Source of the DNA: Gemmataceae bacterium
GTDB taxonomy: Bacteria; Planctomycetota; Planctomycetia; Gemmatales; Gemmataceae
Assembly (NCBI GenBank): GCA_036783645.1
Contig: DAIPWT010000009.1
Coordinates: 9,118 to 73,117 of the forward strand
Direction of reading: 5' to 3'
Length of the DNA stretch: 64,000 nucleotides
Under the pieces are notes generated by a model. The model saw nothing but the letters and a program-made list of their open reading frames with translations, was not told where the DNA came from and did not search any database. The position numbers and the translations under genes are program-made. Below are positions 4,601 to 12,975 of the stretch, in pieces; positions within the stretch are counted from its first letter, which is position 1; each line of letters begins with the position of its first letter.

Positions 4601-4698
4601 GCAAGCGTTGGCGAGCCGGGGGCGTAAGCCCCCGGATTCTGTTTCCGTTGCAGCAGACAGAATCCGGGGGCTTACGCCCCCGGCTCGCCAACGCTTGC
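4601..4698. repeat. 98-bp nested palindrome at the left edge of the phage-like cluster
   Basis: GCAAGCGTTGGCGAGCCGGGGGCGTAAGCCCCCGGATTCTGT ... ACAGAATCCGGGGGCTTACGCCCCCGGCTCGCCAACGCTTGC. The right arm encodes the last codons of the 4672-5157 gene. Confidence 0.85.
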
Positions 4699-5157
4699 CG
4701 GCCGTAGGCCGTTCAACACGCCAACCACCTCCGCGCGGGCGTCCGGATACCGCTCCAGCGCTCGCAGCAAGGTGCGGAGCAAATCCTGTACGCCGGGATC
4801 GAGCAAGGGCGACGTCGGCTTGTCAGCGCCGCCGCGCGGCTTGGCGAGCGCCGACCAACCGGGTTTGGCCGCCGTCTCTTTACCGGGGCCAGCCTTGAGC
4901 CAGTCCACCGGCTTGCCTTTCAGCGCGGCGACCTCCGCACCGAGCCGCGCCTGCGCCTCGGCCTGACGCACCGCCACGGCGAAGAGACGGTATTTCAGGA
5001 TCTGCCGTTTGCCATCGCCCTTGCGCATCCATTCCTCGAAGTCCTCGCGCGAGACGCCGGCGGCCTCGGCGGCGACGTGCGCGAAACCGCCGGCGCGGAC
5101 GTAGGCAAGGATGGTCGTTTCGACGGCGGGCGTCAGTAGAGGACGTTTCTGAGCCAT
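4672..5157 (-). CDS. small HTH protein resembling phage terminase small subunits
   Basis: N-terminus LLTPAVETTILAYVRAGGFAHVAAEAAGVSREDFEEWMRKG...YRLFAVAVRQAEAQA fits the TerS-like homeodomain pattern. Last gene of the phage-like operon. Confidence 0.5.
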   Translation of the reverse strand: MAQKRPLLTPAVETTILAYVRAGGFAHVAAEAAGVSREDFEEWMRKGDGKRQILKYRLFAVAVRQAEAQARLGAEVAALKGKPVDWLKAGPGKETAAKPGWSALAKPRGGADKPTSPLLDPGVQDLLRTLLRALERYPDARAEVVGVLNGLRPASVGEPGA

Positions 5158-5174
5158 AAGAAGAGGTCCATTTC

Positions 5175-5224
5175 ATAGGTCCTATAGGACTTATAGGTCC
5201 TATAGGACCTATAAGTCCTACAGG
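5175..5224. repeat. A/T-rich palindromic array of 9-bp units, copy 2
   Basis: ATAGGTCCTATAGGACTTATAGGTCCTATAGGACCTATAAGTCCTACAGG, in the intergenic gap between the ABC-GNAT gene and the HTH gene. Confidence 0.85.
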
Positions 5225-5228
5225 ATTG

Positions 5229-6356
5229 TCAGCCGCTCAACAAAGCGCAAGCCTGGTATCGAGGCAGAGCGGGGCCGACATACTCAAAGCCGGCCGTGAG
5301 CCGATTGGTCGCATGTTTGAGGCCGCGCCGTCCACGTTCGCCGCGCGAGACGAGGCTCGGCGACCGCCGCAGTCGCCAGAGCGATGAACGCAGACGAGCG
5401 CGGATCATGGCCGGGTGCGTGGTGGTGGACACGGCACGGCAGCCCAGGCCGCGCCACAATGACGCGACCAGGGCCGAGAGCGCATTACCCACGCCGACGC
5501 CTTGATAATCCGGCAAGCAAACCGTCCGGTGTTCGCGCCGCGTCGGCGGGCCGGCGCCAGGGAACGGCAGCCACGCACTGAAGGCGACCGGCCGTTCGTC
5601 CCACGATGCCAGGAAGCAGACGGCCGAGCGCGCCAGTTCGCCGCTCAGGTAGTGATGCGGAGCGAACAGCGGCCACGCCGATGTCTGGCAACGAACGATT
5701 TCGAGGCGGACGTGGGGCCGTCGCCGAAGCAACCTCCATTCAAACCGACCCTCGGCGGGTTGATAAACCCAATCCGGTTGCAGCCACGGAATCACGTCGT
5801 CATGGCAAGTCACGGCGACGAAGCGCAGGCCGTTGGCACGGACGGCCCGCGCCGCCGCGGCGCTGCCGATTTGCGCCACAGTGCGGTCCACGACGCTGGT
5901 GTATTCATCCAGGACAACGAGCGCCGGTTTAGCTGAGGAGAGCGCTTCGGCGAGGAGGCGGGCAAGCGTGACGCGAAATTGTTGGCCGGTGGACAGGACA
6001 TGGAACGGCCGCAGCCATGCCGGGGGCGACGAAAAGCCGACCGCCGATAGCAGACTCGTCACGTCTTTGATCGAAGTGCCATCAGGAAAGGCGTCGAGGA
6101 GGGCGCGATCATGCGGCCAGGAGAGGGCGGCGGAGTGCAAGGTCTCGCGCGGCCAGAACCAGCGGGCGAGCGTGGACTTGCCGCAGCCGGACGGCCCGGT
6201 GATGAGGCCGACGTTCCACGGCCGATCCTCAATCGGCAGGGTCGCGGCCCACTGAAGGCGCGACGTTTTCTCAGGCGCCAGGTCGAACAGCCCGCGCACT
6301 TGCTGGACGCGCGGCGATTCGACGACGAGCGACTCGACGGTGACGACGGCTTGCAT
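5229..6356 (-). CDS. soluble ABC-type ATPase fused to a C-terminal GNAT-like acetyltransferase domain
   Basis: Walker A GPSGCGKST, ABC signature LSTGQQ, Walker B LVVLDEYTSVVD, H-loop VTCHDD. C-terminal CLPDYQGVGVGNALSALV fits the GNAT motif A (QxxGxG). Start moved to ATG 6354-6356 because the longer ORF reads through the hairpin. Confidence 0.7.
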   Translation of the reverse strand: MQAVVTVESLVVESPRVQQVRGLFDLAPEKTSRLQWAATLPIEDRPWNVGLITGPSGCGKSTLARWFWPRETLHSAALSWPHDRALLDAFPDGTSIKDVTSLLSAVGFSSPPAWLRPFHVLSTGQQFRVTLARLLAEALSSAKPALVVLDEYTSVVDRTVAQIGSAAAARAVRANGLRFVAVTCHDDVIPWLQPDWVYQPAEGRFEWRLLRRRPHVRLEIVRCQTSAWPLFAPHHYLSGELARSAVCFLASWDERPVAFSAWLPFPGAGPPTRREHRTVCLPDYQGVGVGNALSALVASLWRGLGCRAVSTTTHPAMIRARLRSSLWRLRRSPSLVSRGERGRRGLKHATNRLTAGFEYVGPALPRYQACALLSG

Positions 6357-6376
6357 AGTGCAATCTCCAAAAGATT

Positions 6377-6473
6377 CACCACAAAGACACAAAGAACACA
6401 AAGGATGACAAATTGAATAAATACTTAATGCCTATCTTTTGTCTTCCTTTGTGTTCTTTGTGTCTTTGTGGTG
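6377..6473. repeat. hairpin with arms made of three CACAAAG units and an A/T-rich loop
   Basis: CACCACAAAGACACAAAGAACACAAAGG ... CCTTTGTGTTCTTTGTGTCTTTGTGGTG. Unit spacing is 8 then 9 nt. Lies between the ParB-like and ABC-GNAT genes. Confidence 0.85.
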
Positions 6474-6483
6474 AATCCGTTTT

Positions 6484-7053
6484 TCAGCTCAACAGCGCCC
6501 GGCACTTCAGCCCTTCCGTCTGGAAGCGTTGCAGCAAGGCGATTTGTTCCTCTTCATCGGCGCATTCAATCAGGACGAGGTATTGTTCCGCCGGGTCCGG
6601 CGCCGCCTTGCGCCCCGCTCCGGCCAGCGTCTTTTCGACCGCCGCGCCCGCCGACGCGATGGACCGCCACAGATTCACCAGCACGTCGGAATCCGCGTCG
6701 GTCACGCGGCGCAGCGCGTCGAGCTTTTGAGCGTCGTAGTCGGCAAGGGCGGCGAGCGGGTCGATGGACAGCAACAGCGCGCGGGCCTCGCCGTCGTCCA
6801 CGTCCAACACTTCCACGTCCACTTCCATATCGGGTCGCATCGACTGGCGCAGGTGGCCGTCGATCAGCTTGAGTCGGCCGTCGGGAAGCTCGTAGGCCAG
6901 CAGACTCCGGGCGAAGCCTACTTCCTCGTATAAGGCGGCCAGGGCGGCGCGCTGGGCCTCGGAGTGCAAGCGCGGGTTCAGCTCATGCGGCACGAGGTCG
7001 CCGGCGCGGACGCGGCGATGGCCCTTGATGCGGTTGCGCGGCGAAGCGGTCAT
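6484..7053 (-). CDS. ParB-like nuclease (ParB/Srx N-terminal) domain protein
   Basis: LVPHELNPRLHSEAQ...LKLIDGHLR resembles the ParB N-terminal box (the usual DGHHR appears here as DGHLR). About 190 aa. Confidence 0.65.
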   Translation of the reverse strand: MTASPRNRIKGHRRVRAGDLVPHELNPRLHSEAQRAALAALYEEVGFARSLLAYELPDGRLKLIDGHLRQSMRPDMEVDVEVLDVDDGEARALLLSIDPLAALADYDAQKLDALRRVTDADSDVLVNLWRSIASAGAAVEKTLAGAGRKAAPDPAEQYLVLIECADEEEQIALLQRFQTEGLKCRALLS

Positions 7054-7069: not shown

Positions 7070-7161
7070 AGGGTCTGACCGCAAAGGGCGGGGAAACCCC
7101 GCTCCTACGGCGATTTTCTTGGGTAGGGGCGGGGTTTCCCCGCCCTTTGCGGTCAGACCCT
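7070..7161. repeat. GC-rich 92-bp palindrome inside the phage-like operon
   Basis: AGGGTCTGACCGCAAAGGGCGGGGAAACCCCGC ... GCGGGGTTTCCCCGCCCTTTGCGGTCAGACCCT. Confidence 0.85.
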
Positions 7162-7516
7162 AAACATCGTTACTCGGCCACGTCAGGTTGATGCGCTGTA
7201 GGTAGACGATTTTGTGATCCACCGCCGTGCCGCGGCCCACGCGGGCCACGGCCTGCACCTGAAACCTCGTCCCCGATTGGTTCGACACGTACACGGCGGA
7301 GCCGCCTGGCACACCGCTATAACCGTCGCGGACGTCCACCGTCGTCTCGACGCGCAGGATGTGCGTGTAGGTGAAAATGGGATTAATCGCAGGCTTGAGG
7401 TTGCGGAAATCCTCTTCCAGATAGCCCGTCGCGCCCGGCACGTCCGGCGGCGCCGGCGGCAGATTCTGCCCATGATAGATGTCACAAGTAATGTTGGCGG
7501 GCATCGGCAGGCTCAT
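7160..7516 (-). CDS. small phage head-completion (head-closure/adaptor-like) protein
   Basis: 118 aa, immediately after the connector-like gene (4-nt gap). Assignment rests on size, beta-rich composition and position only. Confidence 0.4.
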   Translation of the reverse strand: MSLPMPANITCDIYHGQNLPPAPPDVPGATGYLEEDFRNLKPAINPIFTYTHILRVETTVDVRDGYSGVPGGSAVYVSNQSGTRFQVQAVARVGRGTAVDHKIVYLQRINLTWPSNDV

Positions 7517-7519
7517 GGC

Positions 7520-8473
7520 TTACCCCTGATTCGTGGCGACAGTGTGACGACGGTACGGCGCCAACAGCGGCCGGATCACCGGCGGCGGTTGATGGTCGCC
7601 GGCGGCTTGCATCCACGTTTGAGCGGCCGCGCCAGACACCGCCTGATGAGACAAAGAAGGATCGCGCTGGGTTAGGTCGTAGTTCATCGCCACCCAGAGG
7701 GCGCACGCCTGTTGCACGGCTTCCGGCACGGTCGTATAGCCGGCCGTGTACTGCACACGGAAGTTGTGGATTCCCACTGGCCAGATCAGGTCTTCGGGAT
7801 GCAGCAATTCCGGATCGGAATAGGGGATGGCGCGGAGCAGCCAGCCGCGCGCGTCCCACTGATAGCCGGCCAGCTCGTAAGTGTGCAGCTTCAACTCGGC
7901 GTTCTGTCGCATGGCCGTGAGGGCGCCCTGCGATTGCACGCCGTCGCCGTAGCTGCTGGGCACATACAAGTCGGCGCTCGGCCATTGGCCGTAATCTCCC
8001 GTGACATCGCCGACGACTTGCGCGGTCCAACCGCGGCCGACGGCGGCGACCGCGCTGGCCAACGCGGTCAACGTCGGACACGCCGCCCACGTCAGGCTGG
8101 CCGTGGTGATCGTCTTCACGCCGGCCGCGACCTCGACCAGCTGAAGGCCGGTCGCCGTCACTTGGACGCGGCTCTGCTGGGTCGCCTGGCTGACGCTGTT
8201 ATTGACGACTTTGAGGACCGTCACAGGGCGGTAACGGACGCTATCCACCGACTGAACAGGGTATTCGCGCAGGATCAGCCGGGGATCACCCGTGCCGTTG
8301 TAAAGCTCGTCGCGTGCGATGCTGACGAAGCGGCGCCGGCAATACTTTTCGATGGCGTCGGAACAGGCCGTGACGAGCGTTTGTAGGATCGCGTTTGTCG
8401 TCGTATTGTCGGCGTAATACTGCATGGCCTGCACGGCGCGGCCGCTGGTGATGAGGTCTTTGGGGTTAGCCAC
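7520..8473 (-). CDS. phage gp6-like head-tail connector domain protein with a roughly 200-aa C-terminal extension
   Basis: N-terminus ...NAILQTLVTACSDAIEKYCRRRFVSIARDELYNGTGDPRLILREYPVQSVDSV matches the gp6-like pattern. Start overlaps the GT2 stop by 8 nt. Confidence 0.5.
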   Translation of the reverse strand: MANPKDLITSGRAVQAMQYYADNTTTNAILQTLVTACSDAIEKYCRRRFVSIARDELYNGTGDPRLILREYPVQSVDSVRYRPVTVLKVVNNSVSQATQQSRVQVTATGLQLVEVAAGVKTITTASLTWAACPTLTALASAVAAVGRGWTAQVVGDVTGDYGQWPSADLYVPSSYGDGVQSQGALTAMRQNAELKLHTYELAGYQWDARGWLLRAIPYSDPELLHPEDLIWPVGIHNFRVQYTAGYTTVPEAVQQACALWVAMNYDLTQRDPSLSHQAVSGAAAQTWMQAAGDHQPPPVIRPLLAPYRRHTVATNQG

Positions 8474-9374
8474 GGCCGGCCTCCTTTCGCCACGCCATAA
8501 TGCGGACTTTCGCCTCGCGCACGGCTTGGATGAGATTGGTTCGGCAATTCCGGTGCATCTCCCCGTCGGCGTCGTAGAGATTCAGCCCTGAAAGGGAGCG
8601 TATATGGTCGATATTTTCGTCCGTGTAGCGAGCGTAGTTTTGATCGTGGCCGATGAGATACGGGAAGACGCCGGCCCGGCGGATGCAGCGGTCGAACGGC
8701 TGTTCGGTGTCGGGATAGCCGACCTGTTGCGGCCGCGCCTCGCCGGACTCCCAGTAGCGCTCGAAGCTCCACGTCGCCCCGATGCGCCGCATTGTCGGCA
8801 TGTGGAGCATCGTGCAAGTGTGCGAGACGACGTTGCGCCAGCCGTTGGTATCCGGCCGTGGACTCATCTCGTAGCCGACGACGGGCTGGCCGGCGTCGCA
8901 CAGGCCGAGCAGCCATTCGACAAGGTCGCGCCGTCGCGGGAAGACGTCCGAATGCGAGCAGAGCAAGTACCGCGTGCGGCACAGGGCGAAGGCCAGGTCC
9001 ATCGCCGTGGTAACAGGCGCCGACGAGTGGGCATAGGCATGGGCGCGGACGTAATGGATTTCCACGTCGGGCCGACGGAGCGCCTCCAGAGTGCGGACGA
9101 CGGCCGGCGACGAACCCGTGTCAATGAGTAGGACGTAGGGCCGCACGGTTTGCAGGGCCAGCAGTTCCAGCAAGACGGGCAAGGTTTCCGGAGTTTCCAG
9201 ATGCGGTATTACCACGGTAACTTGATACTCCCACGGCTTACGGACGGCCGTACCTTCCCAGGGTCGTTGTCGGGCGCGGCAGGCAAACGGAGCGACGGCC
9301 GCTAGGGAGGATTCGTCGGCCTTGAGGATCGCCTCACGGGCGCGGGCCAAGGTGATGAGGTCGTTGCCAGGCAT
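8466..9374 (-). CDS. family-2 glycosyltransferase embedded in the head module
   Basis: VTVVIPHLETPETLPVLLELLALQT...LLIDTGSS...CSHSDVFP (GT-A fold, DxD-like SDV). Start set to ATG 9372-9374 (MPGNDL) because the longer ORF reads into the REP hairpin. Confidence 0.75.
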   Translation of the reverse strand: MPGNDLITLARAREAILKADESSLAAVAPFACRARQRPWEGTAVRKPWEYQVTVVIPHLETPETLPVLLELLALQTVRPYVLLIDTGSSPAVVRTLEALRRPDVEIHYVRAHAYAHSSAPVTTAMDLAFALCRTRYLLCSHSDVFPRRRDLVEWLLGLCDAGQPVVGYEMSPRPDTNGWRNVVSHTCTMLHMPTMRRIGATWSFERYWESGEARPQQVGYPDTEQPFDRCIRRAGVFPYLIGHDQNYARYTDENIDHIRSLSGLNLYDADGEMHRNCRTNLIQAVREAKVRIMAWRKEAGRG

Positions 9375-9391
9375 TATTTTCTCCACGGTTC

Positions 9392-9457
9392 GTACAAGCC
9401 CTGAGCGCAAGCGAGGGGTTTTCGTTTTCCCCCTCGCTTGCGCTCGGGGCTTGTAGC
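9392..9457. repeat. REP-like palindrome, family GTACAAGCC(Y)GAGCGCAAGCGAGGG
   Basis: GTACAAGCCCTGAGCGCAAGCGAGGGG...CCCCTCGCTTGCGCTCGGGGCTTGTAG. Related copies at 39241-39296 and 44936-44997. Confidence 0.8.
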
Positions 9458-9463
9458 GCTAGA

Positions 9464-9922
9464 TCAGGTGGTCACCTGCTGGCTGACCACCGAAACATCG
9501 TTGTTGACGCTGTTGGGTTTGTGAATGGCTTCGCCGGTCAATGGTACGCAGACCACCGGGATGGTGGGCGTCGTACCGCCGATGGTGAAGACCACGCTGG
9601 CCCGGACGTAGCGTTTGCCGGCCCCGAGTTGATCGGCGCGGACTTCGCTGGTGCCGATGCTGCTCGCGGCGGCGACGGTTAGCGCACTTACCGTACCGTT
9701 ATTGGTCCAGGTTGCGCCGTCGGGCGATTCCTGGACGGTCAACACGGCTGCGCACGTCGGGCTGGTGCCGCCGAAGACGCCGAGGTCGAGGACGAAGAGA
9801 CAGCGATGGACCAGCGCCAGGTCCACCTTGCCGGTGGTGAGCGTGGTGGTCGAGGTCAGTTGCTGGGCGTGGATCGGCGCGCCGCCGATGGCCAACGCTT
9901 GGGTCAGATGTTCGGTGTACAT
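9464..9922 (-). CDS. hypothetical phage structural protein (candidate capsid accessory/decoration protein by position)
   Basis: 152 aa, Thr/Gly/Val-rich beta-type composition, directly downstream of the capsid gene. No recognisable motif. Confidence 0.45.
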   Translation of the reverse strand: MYTEHLTQALAIGGAPIHAQQLTSTTTLTTGKVDLALVHRCLFVLDLGVFGGTSPTCAAVLTVQESPDGATWTNNGTVSALTVAAASSIGTSEVRADQLGAGKRYVRASVVFTIGGTTPTIPVVCVPLTGEAIHKPNSVNNDVSVVSQQVTT

Positions 9923-9950
9923 GGATGCTCCTTTATAAAGATAAGCGGAG

Positions 9951-10009
9951 TATTATAAGTCCTATAGGTCCTATAGGACCTATAAGTCCTATAAGACTAA
10001 TGAAACCCC
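9951..10009. repeat. A/T-rich palindromic array of 9-bp units, copy 3
   Basis: TATTATAAGTCCTATAGGTCCTATAGGACCTATAAGTCCTATAAGACTA, between the capsid gene stop and the next gene. Confidence 0.85.
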
Positions 10010-10023
10010 GCCCGCCAGGGTAA

Positions 10024-11340
10024 TCAGTTCAACGCCACAAACGGCGAAACCTGCGTCACGCCGTCCTGCAAAGTCACGGGCTTATCCAACCACGGCTGGC
10101 CGTCCACGCGCTCGACCACGCGCCACGTCATCTGGTTCTTGAGGAAGTTGACGTGTTCCGACGCTGCGATCTCGATCTGCATCCGGTCGCCCACGATGTA
10201 GAAACTCGGGTCGAGCAGCATCACGTCGCCCTTCGTGCCGAGGGCCGGCACCTTCTCCGTGGGAAACACCGGCCGGCCGAGCAGGCTCCAGTTCGGCGAC
10301 TTCGTCGCTCCCTGATCGATGCTGATGAAGATCGCCCGGTTGGCGCCGTCCTTGAGCTGCAACAGCTGCGGCACCACGCTGGGGCTACAAGTCCAAATCG
10401 CTTTGCCCCAAGAGATAGGCAGCAGCTTGGCCCACATGCCGGCCACGTCGGCGTACTGCACCTGGTTGGCCGTCTGCCGGGTCTGGCTGACCGTGGCCGC
10501 GGCGCCGAGCATTCCTTGCGGTTTGCCGGCCCCGTTGCCCTGCAAAAAGGCGTACTCCTCGAACCACGCCAGCGACTTGGCGAACAGCGTCATCAGGAAC
10601 TTTTCCAGGCCGATCACGCTGTCCTGCAACAGCACATTGCTGGACACCGAATATCCGGAAAGCTCCCACGCCTTCAGGTCGAGCTGCTTGAACTGCGGCT
10701 CCGTCTCGGTGCGCGTCTGCGACTCGGCGGTCCAGTACATCTGCACGCCGCCGAAGAACGGGCTGACGCCGGCCGCCTGCACCGTACTCGCGTCGAGGTA
10801 GGGGATCTGCATGGTGGAACTCGCCATCGGCACGACGAAGGCGCGCTGACGGACGAAGGTTTCTTCCGCCATGATCGACATCAATTGTTGGTAGAAGTCC
10901 GGCGGCACGGTATAGCCGCCGGTGACGCCGGACGCCTCGGCCAGGGCGGCCTTGCCGGCGTACTCGACGAAACGGCTGCCGTAGTGCTTTTCGAGGTAGT
11001 TGCGGTCGCCGCGGGCCACGGCCAAGGCCCAGTCGCCGAAGGTTTTGCCATGCGGATCGCCGTCGCCGCCAGAGCCGAACAGAACCGGCGCGGCGTTTTT
11101 GCGCGACAGCGAGCGGGCGTCGGCGAAGACTTTCAGCGATTGGTTGACGGCCGCGTCGATGCTCTGGGATTGGCGGGCGAGGGCGGCGTCGAGAGCGCGG
11201 GTGACGGCGGGGCCGATGAGATCGTCGTCCACGGCGACGGCGGTTTGCTGTTGGATGAGGTGCTGGGCGTCGGTCTCGGAAACGTCGATGCGTTCACCGG
11301 CGGCGCGGCCGAGGAACGACTTTTTCAGTTCGACAAACAT
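10024..11340 (-). CDS. HK97-fold phage major capsid protein with a roughly 110-aa helical N-terminal (delta-domain-like) extension
   Basis: GGYTVPPDFYQQLMSIMAEETFVRQRAFVVPMASSTMQIPYLD and downstream blocks match the Phage_capsid (HK97 gp5-like) pattern. 438 aa. Confidence 0.88.
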   Translation of the reverse strand: MFVELKKSFLGRAAGERIDVSETDAQHLIQQQTAVAVDDDLIGPAVTRALDAALARQSQSIDAAVNQSLKVFADARSLSRKNAAPVLFGSGGDGDPHGKTFGDWALAVARGDRNYLEKHYGSRFVEYAGKAALAEASGVTGGYTVPPDFYQQLMSIMAEETFVRQRAFVVPMASSTMQIPYLDASTVQAAGVSPFFGGVQMYWTAESQTRTETEPQFKQLDLKAWELSGYSVSSNVLLQDSVIGLEKFLMTLFAKSLAWFEEYAFLQGNGAGKPQGMLGAAATVSQTRQTANQVQYADVAGMWAKLLPISWGKAIWTCSPSVVPQLLQLKDGANRAIFISIDQGATKSPNWSLLGRPVFPTEKVPALGTKGDVMLLDPSFYIVGDRMQIEIAASEHVNFLKNQMTWRVVERVDGQPWLDKPVTLQDGVTQVSPFVALN

Positions 11341-11597: not shown

Positions 11598-11659
11598 AAT
11601 AGGACTTATAGGACCAATAGGACTTATAGGTCCTATTGGTCCTATAAGTCCTATTGGTC
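11598..11659. repeat. A/T-rich palindromic array of 9-bp units, copy 4
   Basis: AATAGGACTTATAGGACCAATAGGACTTATAGGTCCTATTGGTCCTATAAGTCCTATTGGTC, upstream of the capsid gene and downstream of the thioredoxin-like gene. Confidence 0.85.
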
Positions 11660-12532: not shown

Positions 12533-12622
12533 GGATCGATCCTTCTTCCTTGATGGATCTACGAATGACATGGCGATGACAGGGCGGACCCTTTTAGGCG
12601 AAGGGCGTCGCGGTGTCAAGGC

Positions 12623-12677
12623 GTGGGGCAGGTTTCTAACCTGCCAATTCGGAAGGCAGGTTAGAAACCTGCCCCAC
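12623..12677. repeat. palindromic hairpin (GTGGGGCAGGTTTCTAACCTGCC arms)
   Basis: Perfect inverted repeat with a 9-nt loop, at the 3' end of the small membrane protein gene. Confidence 0.8.
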
Positions 12678-12975
12678 GGCGCGTAAAGTCATTCGACCCC
12701 GGCGCGGGCGGTTCATCTTCCGACTCCTCGGCGCGCTGACGCAGCTCATCCTCTTCGCGGTCGCCGGCCGTTTGTTGCAGCATGGATCGGCCCCATAGGA
12801 GATAGTGAATTGCCCCGAAGAGGAAGATGGCCGCGGCGACCCCGATCACGTAGACGGCCCAGCCGCCCGTCGCCACTACCAGCAGCAGCGCGAAAAAGCC
12901 GGCGACCATCGCCGCCATCATTAGCGACAAACAAGTTCCCCGTTGTCGCCCTTCCGGGTTTTCGCTCGGTTCCAT
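12661..12975 (-). CDS. small membrane protein (two TM helices, acidic tail)
   Basis: From ATG 12973-12975: LSLMMAAMVAGFFALLLVVATGGWAVYVIGVAAAIFLFGAIHYLLW, then a Glu/Asp-rich tail. Confidence 0.4.
   Translation of the reverse strand: MEPSENPEGRQRGTCLSLMMAAMVAGFFALLLVVATGGWAVYVIGVAAAIFLFGAIHYLLWGRSMLQQTAGDREEDELRQRAEESEDEPPAPGSNDFTRRGAGF

Follow-up and report, generated by a model that had tools for sequence, protein, structure and literature searches.

What is the function of an ABC-type ATPase that carries a predicted GNAT acyltransferase domain and is encoded between a ParB-like protein and a small-terminase-like protein? This question is raised by three genes in a 64,000 nucleotide long stretch of DNA from a Gemmataceae bacterium (contig DAIPWT010000009.1), which is referred to here as the window. 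An earlier note had described these genes as a block and had considered either an unconventional packaging-initiation module or a phage-borne defence system.

The three genes belong to a phage head-gene cluster

An ORF check located all three genes at the coordinates given by the earlier note, on the minus strand of the window and in the order ParB-like (7053..6484), ABC-ATPase–GNAT fusion (6356..5229) and TerS-like HTH protein (5157..4672). The note was correct about the genes, but it overlooked the phage head-gene cluster upstream. Pfam and PHROG searches revealed that the trio constitutes the 3' end of this cluster, which includes genes for an HK97-type capsid protein and a head-tail adaptor. 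The HK97-type major capsid protein (10024..11340, minus strand) consists of 438 amino acids, matches Pfam Phage_capsid (2.2e-46) and PHROG 10 (3e-46), and shares 74% identity with the capsid gene of locus L005, whose cluster is complete. The capsid gene is also the first of the remaining head-module genes in the window. Between this gene and the trio, all on the minus strand, are p152 (9922..9464), a gene for a GT2-like glycosyltransferase (9410..8466) with a weak Glycos_transf_2 match under the Pfam cut-off, the head-tail adaptor gene (8473..7520; PHROG 442, 3.5e-25) and p118 (7516..7160). The head-module genes at 7160..9922, among which PHROG 5707 was also matched, are collinear with those of L005.

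The window copy lacks genes for the terminase large subunit (TerL), the portal and scaffold/protease-like proteins, which are present in its relatives. Both the ORF analysis and the cluster comparison agree with the earlier statement that no TerL is found nearby in the window. As a premise, however, this statement fails, because it reflects a local loss: canonical TerL and portal genes are present in the same cluster of the relatives and thus, the region in the window is a packaging region. A TerL in relatives was among the outcomes that the earlier note had itself named as refuting its view. This applies to the region, but the pair of ParB-like and fusion proteins is itself no known packaging component. 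In the relatives, TerL is encoded at the opposite end of the cluster and adjoins the TerS-like gene only if the map is circular. The block constitutes the packaging-proximal end of a compact phage-like head-gene cluster, parts of which are deleted, in a soil planctomycete of the Gemmataceae type. As a cluster without TerL and portal, the window copy may be non-functional as a phage module.

The presumed conservation of the trio is reflected in planctomycete-type loci with sufficient flanking sequence: the ParB-like gene adjoins the fusion gene upstream in 62 of 66 loci, and the TerS-like gene follows it in 55 of 70. In L006 and L020-L022, the trio is intact even though no head gene was detected within approx. 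10 kb on each side. Across distant planctomycete clusters, the pair is 60-67% conserved compared to approx. 31% for the capsid gene, and the pair is overall conserved about equally to the capsid gene or better. Only DNA runs from soil and peat metagenomes matched the window sequence, while RNA runs containing it were not found. A literature search for a planctomycete gene transfer agent yielded nothing relevant, and a 9-mer palindromic array, considered as a conserved site, is missing from all 171 loci examined.

The ABC-ATPase–GNAT fusion protein

The open frame of the fusion gene starts at a TTG (6401..5229). Because homologue alignments begin at the ATG at 6356, with a GGAG nine nucleotides upstream, the gene is taken as 6356..5229, which agrees with the previously suggested limits and encodes 375 amino acids. 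Its assignment draws on PHROG 11143, Pfam, AlphaFold2 and Foldseek, and all ABC and GNAT motifs quoted by the earlier note were found in the protein. The nucleotide-binding domain (about 5742-6356) contains the Walker A motif GPSGCGKST (residues 54-62; 6171-6197), the signature LSTGQQ (residues 121-126; 5979-5996), the Walker B motif LVVLDEY (residues 146-152; 5901-5921), which together with the D-loop (LVVLDEY-TSVVD) covers 5880-5921, and the H-loop VTCHDD (residues 182-187; 5796-5813). The C-terminal GNAT domain (about 5232-5723) contains HHYLS (5643-5657), the acetyl-CoA loop RTVCLPDYQGVGVG (5487-5528) and YQGVGVGNAL (residues 284-293; 5478-5507), all of these likewise on the minus strand. 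In an alignment of 46 sequences with 28-86% identity, Walker A, signature, Walker B/D-loop and H-loop are invariant, as are R277, V279, P282, D283, G288 and G290 of the GNAT domain. The presumed Q-loop position, where ABC transporters have a conserved glutamine in contact with the membrane partner, reads DAFP in planctomycete members and DQFP in others.

Both domains exceed the respective Pfam cut-offs, with 31 bits versus 25 for ABC_tran and 25.1-27.1 bits versus 20.7 for Acetyltransf_1 (25.1 for the window protein). Acetyltransf_7 is matched by 16 of 17 family members and Acetyltransf_1 by 14 of 17. In the AlphaFold2 model (pLDDT 89, pTM 0.82), the N-terminal half resembles the nucleotide-binding domains of ABC transporters, with MalK, PotA, SufC and FbpC as best Foldseek matches. 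The ABC domain is a transporter-type nucleotide-binding domain and not of the SMC/OLD type. A true ABC transporter was nevertheless rejected, because a membrane-protein gene flanks neither the window copy nor its relatives; the observation that a membrane partner is lacking thus extends beyond the window.

When modelled alone (pLDDT 86), the GNAT domain retrieved GNAT structures for all of its best 50 PDB matches (E from 8e-6, probability 1.00). The GNAT fold is defined by the order b1-a1-a2-b2-b3-b4-a3-b5-a4-b6, in which b4 and a3 are joined by the pyrophosphate loop for acetyl-CoA (Q/R-x-x-G-x-G/A), and the secondary-structure order in the models fits this superfamily fold. Model and structure matches hence bear out the earlier assignment of the C-terminal domain, which is a predicted GNAT acyltransferase with acyl transfer as the activity expected from its fold and motifs. 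Its closest structures are generic and include RimI, IAA acetyltransferase, Nat/Ard1 and Rv0998, while TmcA is found at rank 13.

The window protein is a member of PHROG 11143 (E 3.5e-98, 329.9 bits, residues 20-377 versus profile positions 3-351 of 357). This family is annotated as function unknown and comprises proteins from phages of Gordonia, Streptococcus, Aeromonas, Leptospira, Burkholderia, Porphyromonas and others. A protein search returned homologous protein clusters in the thousands, and one source labels a homologue 'ABC-type ATPase fused to a predicted acetyltransferase domain'. The family is therefore already on record and not obscure.

The ParB-like protein

The gene at 6484..7053 (minus strand) encodes a 189 amino acid long protein that matches ParB-like PHROG families (1.6e-7). 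It consists of an N-terminal ParB/Srx nucleotide-binding domain (about 6709-7053) with an NPR motif (6964-6978) and the sequence LIDGHLRQ (6844-6867), a variable acidic linker (6580-6708), and a C-terminal module of approx. 30 amino acids, YLVLIECADEEEQIALLQRFQTEGLKCRALLS (6487-6582), which is conserved across phyla. The window protein alone gave no match to Pfam ParB_N, which is matched by 23 of 47 orthologues. A profile of these 47 orthologues matched the N-terminal domains of Spo0J/ParB/Noc in the PDB (2e-13 to 1e-9), a ParB-domain nuclease (3.5e-6) and sulfiredoxin (1e-3), and aligned GHGR with GERR of the G-x-x-R motif. The proposed ParB/Srx-type N-terminal domain is thus supported by the orthologue profile and by PHROG. 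In addition, PHROG 498 aligns this domain with the N-terminus of phage DNA methyltransferases.

An HTH DNA-binding domain was not found in the 189 residues, as the N-terminal domain is followed only by the acidic linker and the short module. A partition ParB was rejected because of this missing HTH domain and the absence of an adjoining ParA gene. With a median pI of 4.1 for linker plus tail and of 10.0 for the GNAT domain, the two proteins are complementary in charge.

The TerS-like gene and an inverted repeat

The third gene (4672..5157, minus strand) encodes a small-terminase-like HTH protein of 161 amino acids, which matches the terminase small subunit family PHROG 4102 (1.4e-9) over residues 8-86 only. 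Its L005 orthologue matches the terminase small subunit with 3.5e-9, and a BLAST search of phage genomes with the window protein gave no match. We consider the gene as the putative small terminase (TerS) of the element, and as a constant neighbour of the pair by operon position, not necessarily as a subunit.

Two 42-nt arms separated by 14 nt form a perfect inverted repeat (4601..4698), which overlaps the TerS stop codon and occurs once in the window. The last nine codons of the TerS-like gene are located within one repeat arm, and similarity to relatives stops at 4699; the repeat thus coincides with the end of similarity to related clusters. It was rejected as a conserved site because it is not present behind TerS in six relatives.

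A conserved gene pair next to terminase genes

Outside the planctomycetes, a ParB-like gene is located immediately upstream of the fusion gene in 73 of 84 loci, and all of these encode the same C-terminal motif. The distance between the ParB-like gene and the start of fusion-gene homology is at most 15 nt, or the genes overlap, in 56 of 72 loci. The two genes form an orthologous, usually abutting module that tailed phages and prophages inherit as a unit. According to the named hosts of these phages and prophages, the pair spans at least six bacterial phyla, including Actinobacteria, Firmicutes, Proteobacteria, Spirochaetes, Bacteroidetes and Planctomycetes. Cultured carriers are the Gordonia phages Sisko and Jace, Pasteurella phage Pmp13, Leptospira phages LE3/LE4 and prophages of Streptococcus pyogenes. 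The suspicion that the pairing does not correspond to a described system is supported by the searchable literature, in which searches for the pair and for the COG-type name gave neither a description of the pair as a system nor an experimental study of its function. As a module, the pair is common yet uncharacterised.

The usual site of the pair is the junction between replication/late-regulation genes and terS/terL, and in phages and prophages outside Planctomycetota it is located directly upstream of the latter. This neighbourhood census confirms the co-occurrence of the ParB-like gene and places the pair beside terminases rather than in defence islands. It is this position alone that speaks for the packaging reading of the earlier note. 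By Pfam family, the TerL following the pair belongs to Terminase_6N in 23 loci, Terminase_3 in 10, TerL_ATPase in seven and GpA in one, and several TerS families also accompany the pair. That the TerL genes come from at least four unrelated families speaks for a generic substrate, for example DNA, and not for one particular terminase. In approx. 20 viral loci, about one quarter by ORF-table count, a TerL-sized gene follows the fusion gene without a recognisable TerS in between; where TerL directly follows the pair, PHROG searches of ten upstream ORFs recognised no TerS upstream of the ParB-like gene either.

Pfam histograms for the two genes upstream and the three genes downstream of the pair are populated by terminases, portals, HNH and SSB proteins, contain no methyltransferases, and show no enrichment of other DNA-modification genes such as those for enzymes of the hmU pathway. 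As unrelated accessory genes also accumulate upstream of terS, synteny alone proves neither a packaging nor a DNA-marking role. Fusion genes without a ParB-like partner occur far from terminase genes in phiE255, Porphyromonas phages, T4-like PX29 and Nonlabens P12024S. In Mu-like phiE255 and the Porphyromonas phages, they are located behind tail genes and beside a formyltransferase-like gene.

Possible functions of the pair

For the pair, the analysis established what the domains are, that their catalytic motifs are intact, and that the genes are orthologous, tightly coupled and syntenic with terminase genes. Phage DNA thymine dioxygenases strictly depend on ParB-like regulators for their activation (5mYOX-ParB; bioRxiv 10.1101/2025.08.14.668559), and terminase genes are found in 19% of the loci of that dioxygenase superfamily (bioRxiv 10.1101/2025.08.14.668559). 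DpdB is a ParB-like ATPase and the partner of the DNA-modifying enzyme DpdA (PMC12839542). The layout of the window ParB-like protein and the adjacency of its gene fit such ParB-dependent DNA-modification modules. By analogy, we tentatively propose that the pair is a nucleotide-gated, ATP-driven acyltransferase whose substrate at packaging is phage DNA or a target bound to it, which we regard as possible rather than probable. The invariance of the ATPase and acetyl-CoA-loop motifs, the tight pairing, the charge complementarity, the PHROG 498 match, the range of terminase families, the ParB-less copies behind tail genes, the sub-threshold Mom matches and the better conservation of the pair than of the capsid gene in distant clusters speak for this proposal. 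The weak link to Mom, the generic structural neighbours of the GNAT domain, the lack of enriched DNA-modification genes beside the pair and the loss of TerL and portal from the window cluster speak against it.

Regarding complex formation, substrate, timing and biological purpose, we infer the following sequence of events. With an NTP bound, the ParB-like subunit would dimerise and either activate its partner enzyme or hold it in position, as the ParB-like regulators do for the thymine dioxygenases and DpdB for DpdA. The ABC domains would dimerise as an ATP sandwich and bring two strongly basic GNAT domains onto a polyanionic substrate, to which the acyl group would be transferred from acyl-CoA via the GNAT domains. 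This would take place just before or during packaging and possibly serve to mark or protect the packaged DNA. A more far-reaching proposal, which at present is rather doubtful, is that the pair represents a previously unrecognised DNA acylation system that marks canonical bases at packaging across phages of many phyla, and that is retained in compact, head-only and possibly domesticated clusters in Gemmataceae.

HNH endonucleases encoded beside terminase genes are required for cos cleavage, and the nearly invariable location of the pair directly upstream of terS/terL, with HNH genes in the same neighbourhood, could likewise indicate a packaging-initiation accessory. In that case, the ABC ATPase and the ParB-like protein, the latter as a nuclease or an NTP-gated DNA clamp, would support the terminase in recognising or cutting concatemeric DNA, with the GNAT domain as a regulatory or binding module. 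The loci with a TerL-sized gene right behind the fusion gene, and the cohesion of the trio in planctomycete loci even where head genes were not detected, are in line with such a role. On the other hand, a specific terminase cofactor would not be expected to accompany such diverse TerL and TerS families, copies without a ParB-like partner occur far from terminase genes, and the strict conservation of the acetyl-CoA loop suggests catalysis rather than a scaffold. In addition, no packaging system is known to include a GNAT protein, and we consider an accessory role as doubtful. The acyl group could alternatively be transferred to a protein, either of the host for takeover or counter-defence, or of the virion or packaging machinery, by an ATP-dependent acetyltransferase with the ParB-like protein as its regulator. 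N-terminal and lysine acetyltransferases (RimI, Ard1/Nat, Rv0998) are among the best GNAT structures, and expression with late genes would suit the modification of virion proteins. These structural matches are unspecific, however, and PADLOC matched no system; moreover, the pair is conserved like the capsid gene or better, unlike fast-evolving counter-defence genes, and a ParB/Srx partner suggests nucleotides or DNA rather than proteins, which makes a protein substrate unlikely.

Acetylation of cytidine in tRNA or rRNA, with the ATPase presenting the base to the GNAT domain as in TmcA/NAT10, would tune late translation. The logic of an ATPase-GNAT fusion is the same, and weak matches to TmcA and NAT10 were obtained by sequence and by structure. 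In S. pyogenes prophage 315.4, an ASCH-domain gene is located two genes downstream, and N4-acylcytosine amidohydrolases are among the ASCH proteins. Yet this adjacency is confined to one lineage, the ATPase is an ABC nucleotide-binding domain instead of a RecD-like helicase, a tRNA-binding domain is absent, and the TM-score of the TmcA match is 0.54 when normalised to the query and 0.17 when normalised to TmcA. As RNA acetylation would also leave the ParB-like partner and the terminase synteny unexplained, it appears very unlikely. The defence or anti-defence function suggested earlier, comparable to OLD, Gabija, PARIS or Septu and here taken as prophage-carried, was prompted by a soluble ABC ATPase next to a protein whose superfamily also contains nucleases. 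A PADLOC scan of the trio and p118 produced weak matches of the ATPase to mad3 and mad8, but these are restricted to generic ABC motifs (residues 122-174 and 63-80; mad3 2.4e-11 for 122-174), and the ParB-like, TerS-like and p118 proteins gave no PADLOC matches. The defence reading was therefore rejected. The transporter-type nucleotide-binding domain, the presence of the pair in lytic phages (Leptospira LE3/LE4, T4-like PX29, Gordonia phages) and its location within packaging operons and phage late modules instead of defence islands also argue against defence, which is thus highly improbable.

With the pair, a two-gene module with intact catalytic motifs emerges beside packaging genes across many phyla. 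Should the module modify DNA, phage epigenetics would gain a new writer chemistry together with a second class of ParB-dependent enzymes, which would bear on restriction evasion and on the reading of modified bases in sequencing data. Should it aid the terminase instead, packaging would have a new cofactor. Both readings are directly testable, because several cultured phages carry the pair.

Relation to known systems

PHROG 11143 has a two-domain architecture identical to that of the window protein, which is a member and differs from it in nothing. The HNH–terminase arrangement of cos phages resembles the pair in having, in many phages, a small accessory gene right upstream of the terminase genes, and its functional link to the terminase has been demonstrated; the HNH fold, however, is unrelated to the pair, which accompanies several terminase families. 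In OLD, Gabija, PARIS and Septu, a soluble ATPase of the ABC superfamily is likewise accompanied by a second protein whose superfamily contains nucleases, but the pair differs by the lack of a PADLOC match, its transporter-type domain and its packaging-operon context. TmcA/NAT10 shares the fusion of an NTPase to a GNAT domain and a weak match in the acetyl-CoA loop region, but uses a helicase-class ATPase, and its partner and genomic context are different.

The post-tail-gene position of some ParB-less copies is the one where Mu carries mom, its DNA-modifying GNAT. Mu Mom is a GNAT-fold modifier of DNA adenine that is expressed with late genes, and the ParB-less phiE255 copy is likewise encoded behind tail genes; Mom, however, has neither an ATPase nor a ParB partner. 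The N-terminal half of the GNAT domain matched Pfam Mom below threshold in nine of 17 members (best 25.3 bits versus a cut-off of 27.1), whereas the window protein did not match PF25680 (Mom). As hhalign against Mu Mom (probability 0.5%, E 0.12), BLASTP and the BFVD ranking, with no Mom protein among the top structural matches of the GNAT domain, gave no support, membership in the Mom family was rejected and Mom is kept as a lead.

By layout, the window ParB-like protein resembles 5mYOX-ParB. In both proteins, an unstructured linker connects an N-terminal nucleotide-binding domain to a C-terminal module and an HTH DNA-binding domain is lacking, the gene for the enzyme is adjacent in both cases, and terminase genes are often found near both. 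The difference resides in the partner, which is a dioxygenase for 5mYOX-ParB and a transglycosylase for DpdB, but an ABC-ATPase–GNAT fusion for the ParB-like protein of the pair.

Gene context and apparent erosion of the window copy

The window has a G+C content of about 62%, near-identical sequence was found only in soil metagenome runs, and its closest protein relatives come from genomes of Gemmataceae and other Planctomycetota. Eight collinear genes occupy the minus strand from 11340 to 4672. They comprise genes for an HK97-type major capsid protein (11340..10024; Pfam Phage_capsid, 2.2e-46), a 152 amino acid protein (p152; 9922..9464), a weakly GT2-like protein (9410..8466) with a Pfam match under the cut-off (E 0.0038), a head-tail adaptor (8473..7520; PHROG 442, 3.5e-25) and a 118 amino acid protein (7516..7160), followed at the 3' end by genes for a ParB-like protein (7053..6484), an ABC ATPase fused to a GNAT domain (ABC::GNAT; 6356..5229) and a TerS-like HTH protein (5157..4672). 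Because capsid and adaptor are among its collinear neighbours, this trio closes a phage head module at its 3' end, a context that the earlier note had missed. The GT2-like gene (8466-9410), which lies within the head module and is flanked by the capsid-proximal p152 and the adaptor, is kept in several related clusters and may hint at virion glycosylation. A tRNA-Arg(TCT) is located 1.3 kb upstream of the capsid gene (12607-12682), and no integrase was noticed among the ORFs adjoining it.

In planctomycetes, the trio usually belongs to a compact 12-16 kb cluster with the order TerL, portal, scaffold/protease-like, capsid, adaptor and small genes, ParB-like, ABC::GNAT, TerS-like and three small ORFs. 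The complete cluster is seen in locus L005 (1-12444), and there are about 75 related loci (L006-L080) and IMG/VR loci L091-L101. Among 76 planctomycete-type loci, those with sufficient flank contain the ParB-like gene in 62 of 66 and the TerS-like gene in 55 of 70 cases, and the three genes listed in the earlier note as a block are thus conserved as a unit. Its remark that no TerL is nearby holds for the window but not for relatives, which carry a canonical TerL in the same cluster. The trio region is therefore a packaging region, and the absence of TerL from the window is a local loss. One scan of the cluster recognised no tail genes. The clusters differ in completeness, some loci have downstream host genes in common and some MAGs hold two copies (L023/L075, L056/L080). 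The cluster, on which no literature was found, may represent a prophage that has become defective, a satellite that forms capsids or an element resembling a gene transfer agent.

Besides TerL, the window copy lacks the portal and scaffold/protease-like genes and the three small ORFs that follow TerS in related clusters. Similarity to relatives stops at 4699, exactly where a perfect inverted repeat of 42 nt (4601-4698) has its outer boundary; the repeat overlaps the TerS-like stop codon and last 9 codons and is probably a rearrangement breakpoint. All eight cluster genes are full length despite their missing neighbours, and the window's own pair of ParB-like and ABC::GNAT genes sits in a truncated element. 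In the close relative L172, whose ABC::GNAT is 86% identical, the capsid gene is broken up into two ORFs of 157 and 260 amino acids and no TerS gene was called after ABC::GNAT (L172 4270-5495 and 11128-11747); the pair is still intact. Both copies look like eroding elements.

Repeats and hairpins

Exactly four intergenic sites in the window carry palindromic arrays that repeat every 9 nt (units TATAGGACT / AGTCCTATA, core TAGGTCCTATAGGACCTA; chance expectation 0). All of them fall in its first 12 kb, and the other 52 kb has none. Two lie within the phage-like cluster, after the capsid gene (9955-9992) and after ABC::GNAT, just upstream of TerS (5175-5221); one is found just upstream of the capsid gene (11599-11654) and one 4.2 kb beyond TerS (411-466). 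They are absent from all 171 loci examined and may represent hairpins of the terminator or REP-like kind, or sites bound by a protein. In addition, nearly all spacers between cluster genes contain long near-perfect hairpins with arms of 26-42 nt (4601-4698, 6373-6477, 7070-7161, 9393-9455). Matching spacers of the closest relative, L068, hold different hairpins (6317-6403, 9841-9984, 11138-11217), and similar hairpins are sparser in the rest of the window. These genomes seem prone to REP-like or terminator hairpins of this sort.

Properties of the encoded proteins

ABC::GNAT starts with the ATG at 6356 and not with an upstream TTG: this ATG is where homologues begin to align, and it is preceded by a GGAG at a distance of 9 nt. 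The ABC and GNAT motifs quoted in the earlier note are all present, each at its expected place. In an alignment of 46 sequences (28-86% identity), the Walker A lysine, the signature S-x-G-Q, the Walker B D-E, the D-loop S-V-V-D-R-T and the H-loop histidine are invariant in the ATPase, as are H-Y-L, R277, V279, P282, D283, G288 and G290 in the GNAT domain. AlphaFold2 gave a confident two-domain model (pLDDT 89.2, pTM 0.82), which as a whole matches ABC transporter nucleotide-binding domains (MalK, PotA, SufC, FbpC), in agreement with sequence matches. Modelled in isolation (pLDDT 85.6), the C-terminal 171 residues bore out the proposed GNAT assignment: the order of strands and helices is that of GNAT, and the top 50 PDB matches are all GNAT enzymes (E 8e-6 to 4e-4). 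Pfam GNAT models were matched by 14-16 of 17 family members. The protein corresponds to PHROG 11143, 'unknown function' (E 3.5e-98), and a protein search with an E-value limit of 1e-5 scored at least 6456 clusters of homologous proteins; one source calls a homologue 'ABC-type ATPase fused to a predicted acetyltransferase domain'.

The window ParB-like protein by itself has no match to Pfam ParB_N and matches PHROG ParB-like families. A profile of 47 orthologues retrieved Spo0J/ParB/Noc N-terminal domains (2e-13), ParB-domain nuclease (3.5e-6) and sulfiredoxin (1e-3), and the family's G-H-G-R is aligned with the ParB G-E-R-R box. An HTH DNA-binding domain is absent from this protein. Its N-terminal domain is followed by an acidic linker, which varies, and then by a conserved module of about 30 residues at the C-terminus (h-h-h-x-C-x-x-E-x-E-Q-x-x-L-L-x-R-L-x-x-E-G-x-x-C-R-A-L), which is recognisable in Gordonia phages, streptococcal prophages and planctomycetes. 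The N-terminal half of the TerS-like protein, which contains the HTH, matches a small-terminase PHROG (1.4e-9).

The pair in phages outside planctomycetes

Among annotated phage genomes, those of Gordonia phage Sisko (genes 1, 2, then 4), Pasteurella phage Pmp13, Streptococcus prophage 315.4 and the lytic Leptospira phages LE3 and LE4 (PMC6078989) all have the gene order ParB-like, ABC::GNAT, terminase. Rhodococcus/Gordonia phage Jace also has the pair, with an annotated small terminase about 3 kb beyond it, past several genes, some on the opposite strand. In a neighbour census of 80 viral contigs and of non-planctomycete genome and phage loci, with neighbours called mechanically, a ParB-like gene with the C-terminal motif lay directly upstream of ABC::GNAT in 73 of 84 non-planctomycete loci. 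The two genes usually abut or overlap (gap of at most 15 nt in 56 of 72 loci). The two genes downstream of ABC::GNAT are mainly TerL, from at least four unrelated Pfam families (Terminase_6N 23, Terminase_3 10, TerL_ATPase 7, GpA 1), and several TerS families are also prominent. One gene further out, portals, further TerL genes, HNH endonucleases and SSB are found. Thus, the pair marks the boundary between replication or late-control genes and packaging genes.

ABC::GNAT copies without a ParB-like gene sit apart from terminase genes; in the Mu-like Burkholderia phage phiE255 and in Porphyromonas phages they follow tail genes and directly precede a formyltransferase-like gene (L087 5140-5754; L089 5134-5607). 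Sisko gene 3 (locus L001, 1814-2464), annotated as 'tRNA-methyltransferase', matches Pfam Formyl_trans_N (4.5e-10) and PHROG 9240 (3e-38) and is of the same kind. The formyltransferase-like gene may encode a second, optional partner enzyme.

Possible functions of the pair

The two proteins probably act together, because their genes are co-inherited across phyla and tightly coupled, and because their charges are complementary (median pI 10.0 for the GNAT domain versus 4.1 for the ParB-like linker and tail). The two nucleotide-dependent parts look active. ABC domains are machines that dimerise on ATP, and dimerisation would therefore bring two GNAT domains together. At the time of packaging, an acyl group would then be transferred to the phage DNA itself or to a target bound to DNA. 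This nucleotide-gated, ATP-driven acyl transfer is a tentative reading, which we rank first on the basis of the probable joint action, the predicted activity of both partners, terminase diversity, the position of ParB-less copies and an analogy to other ParB-like proteins. Since the pair occurs with many terminase families, a generic substrate such as DNA fits better than a specific terminase partner. In phage Mu, the DNA-modifying GNAT Mom is located after the tail genes, as is the ParB-less ABC::GNAT of phiE255 and of Porphyromonas phages. Some ABC::GNAT family members gave sub-threshold matches to Pfam Mom; the link failed direct tests (hhalign against Mu Mom, BLASTP, BFVD structure ranking). 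Weaknesses of the DNA-directed reading are the generic structural neighbours of the modelled GNAT domain, the lack of enrichment of other DNA-modification genes near the pair (Pfam, two genes upstream and three downstream) and the fact that accessory genes commonly settle upstream of terS.

A packaging accessory, which is unlikely, would explain the position beside terminase genes. It draws on about 20 loci (ORF-table count) in which the pair is followed by a TerL-sized gene and no TerS is recognisable in between, and on planctomycete loci that carry the trio but in which no head gene was detected in the roughly 10 kb to each side; the diverse terminase families and the conserved acetyl-CoA loop argue against it. 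RimI- and Nat-like structural matches would suit a protein acetyltransferase for takeover, counter-defence or virion modification, but the pair evolves slowly and we consider this role slightly less likely still. RNA acetylation as by TmcA, which likewise combines an ATPase with a GNAT domain, is improbable, because ATPase class and context differ. Least probable is a defence system of the OLD/Gabija/PARIS/Septu kind, as the earlier note had suggested: it has no PADLOC support, neither ATPase type nor genomic context fits, and lytic phages also carry the pair.

Comparison with known systems

The domains of the pair are ordinary and the family is already catalogued. The searchable literature yielded no functional study of the pair. 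It is a widespread and conserved module, predicted to be enzymatic, and easily testable in cultured phages that carry its genes. Phage thymine dioxygenases that act on DNA have a ParB-like protein as obligatory activator, and loci of their superfamily often contain terminase genes (bioRxiv 10.1101/2025.08.14.668559). This activator and the ParB-like protein of the pair have a common layout, with a nucleotide-binding domain, an unstructured linker and a C-terminal module, and without a DNA-binding domain. As summarised in PMC12839542, the ParB-like ATPase DpdB helps DpdA. In PHROG 498, ParB-like domains are fused to phage DNA methyltransferases. By analogy, the pair may be likened to such ParB-partnered enzyme modules of phages.
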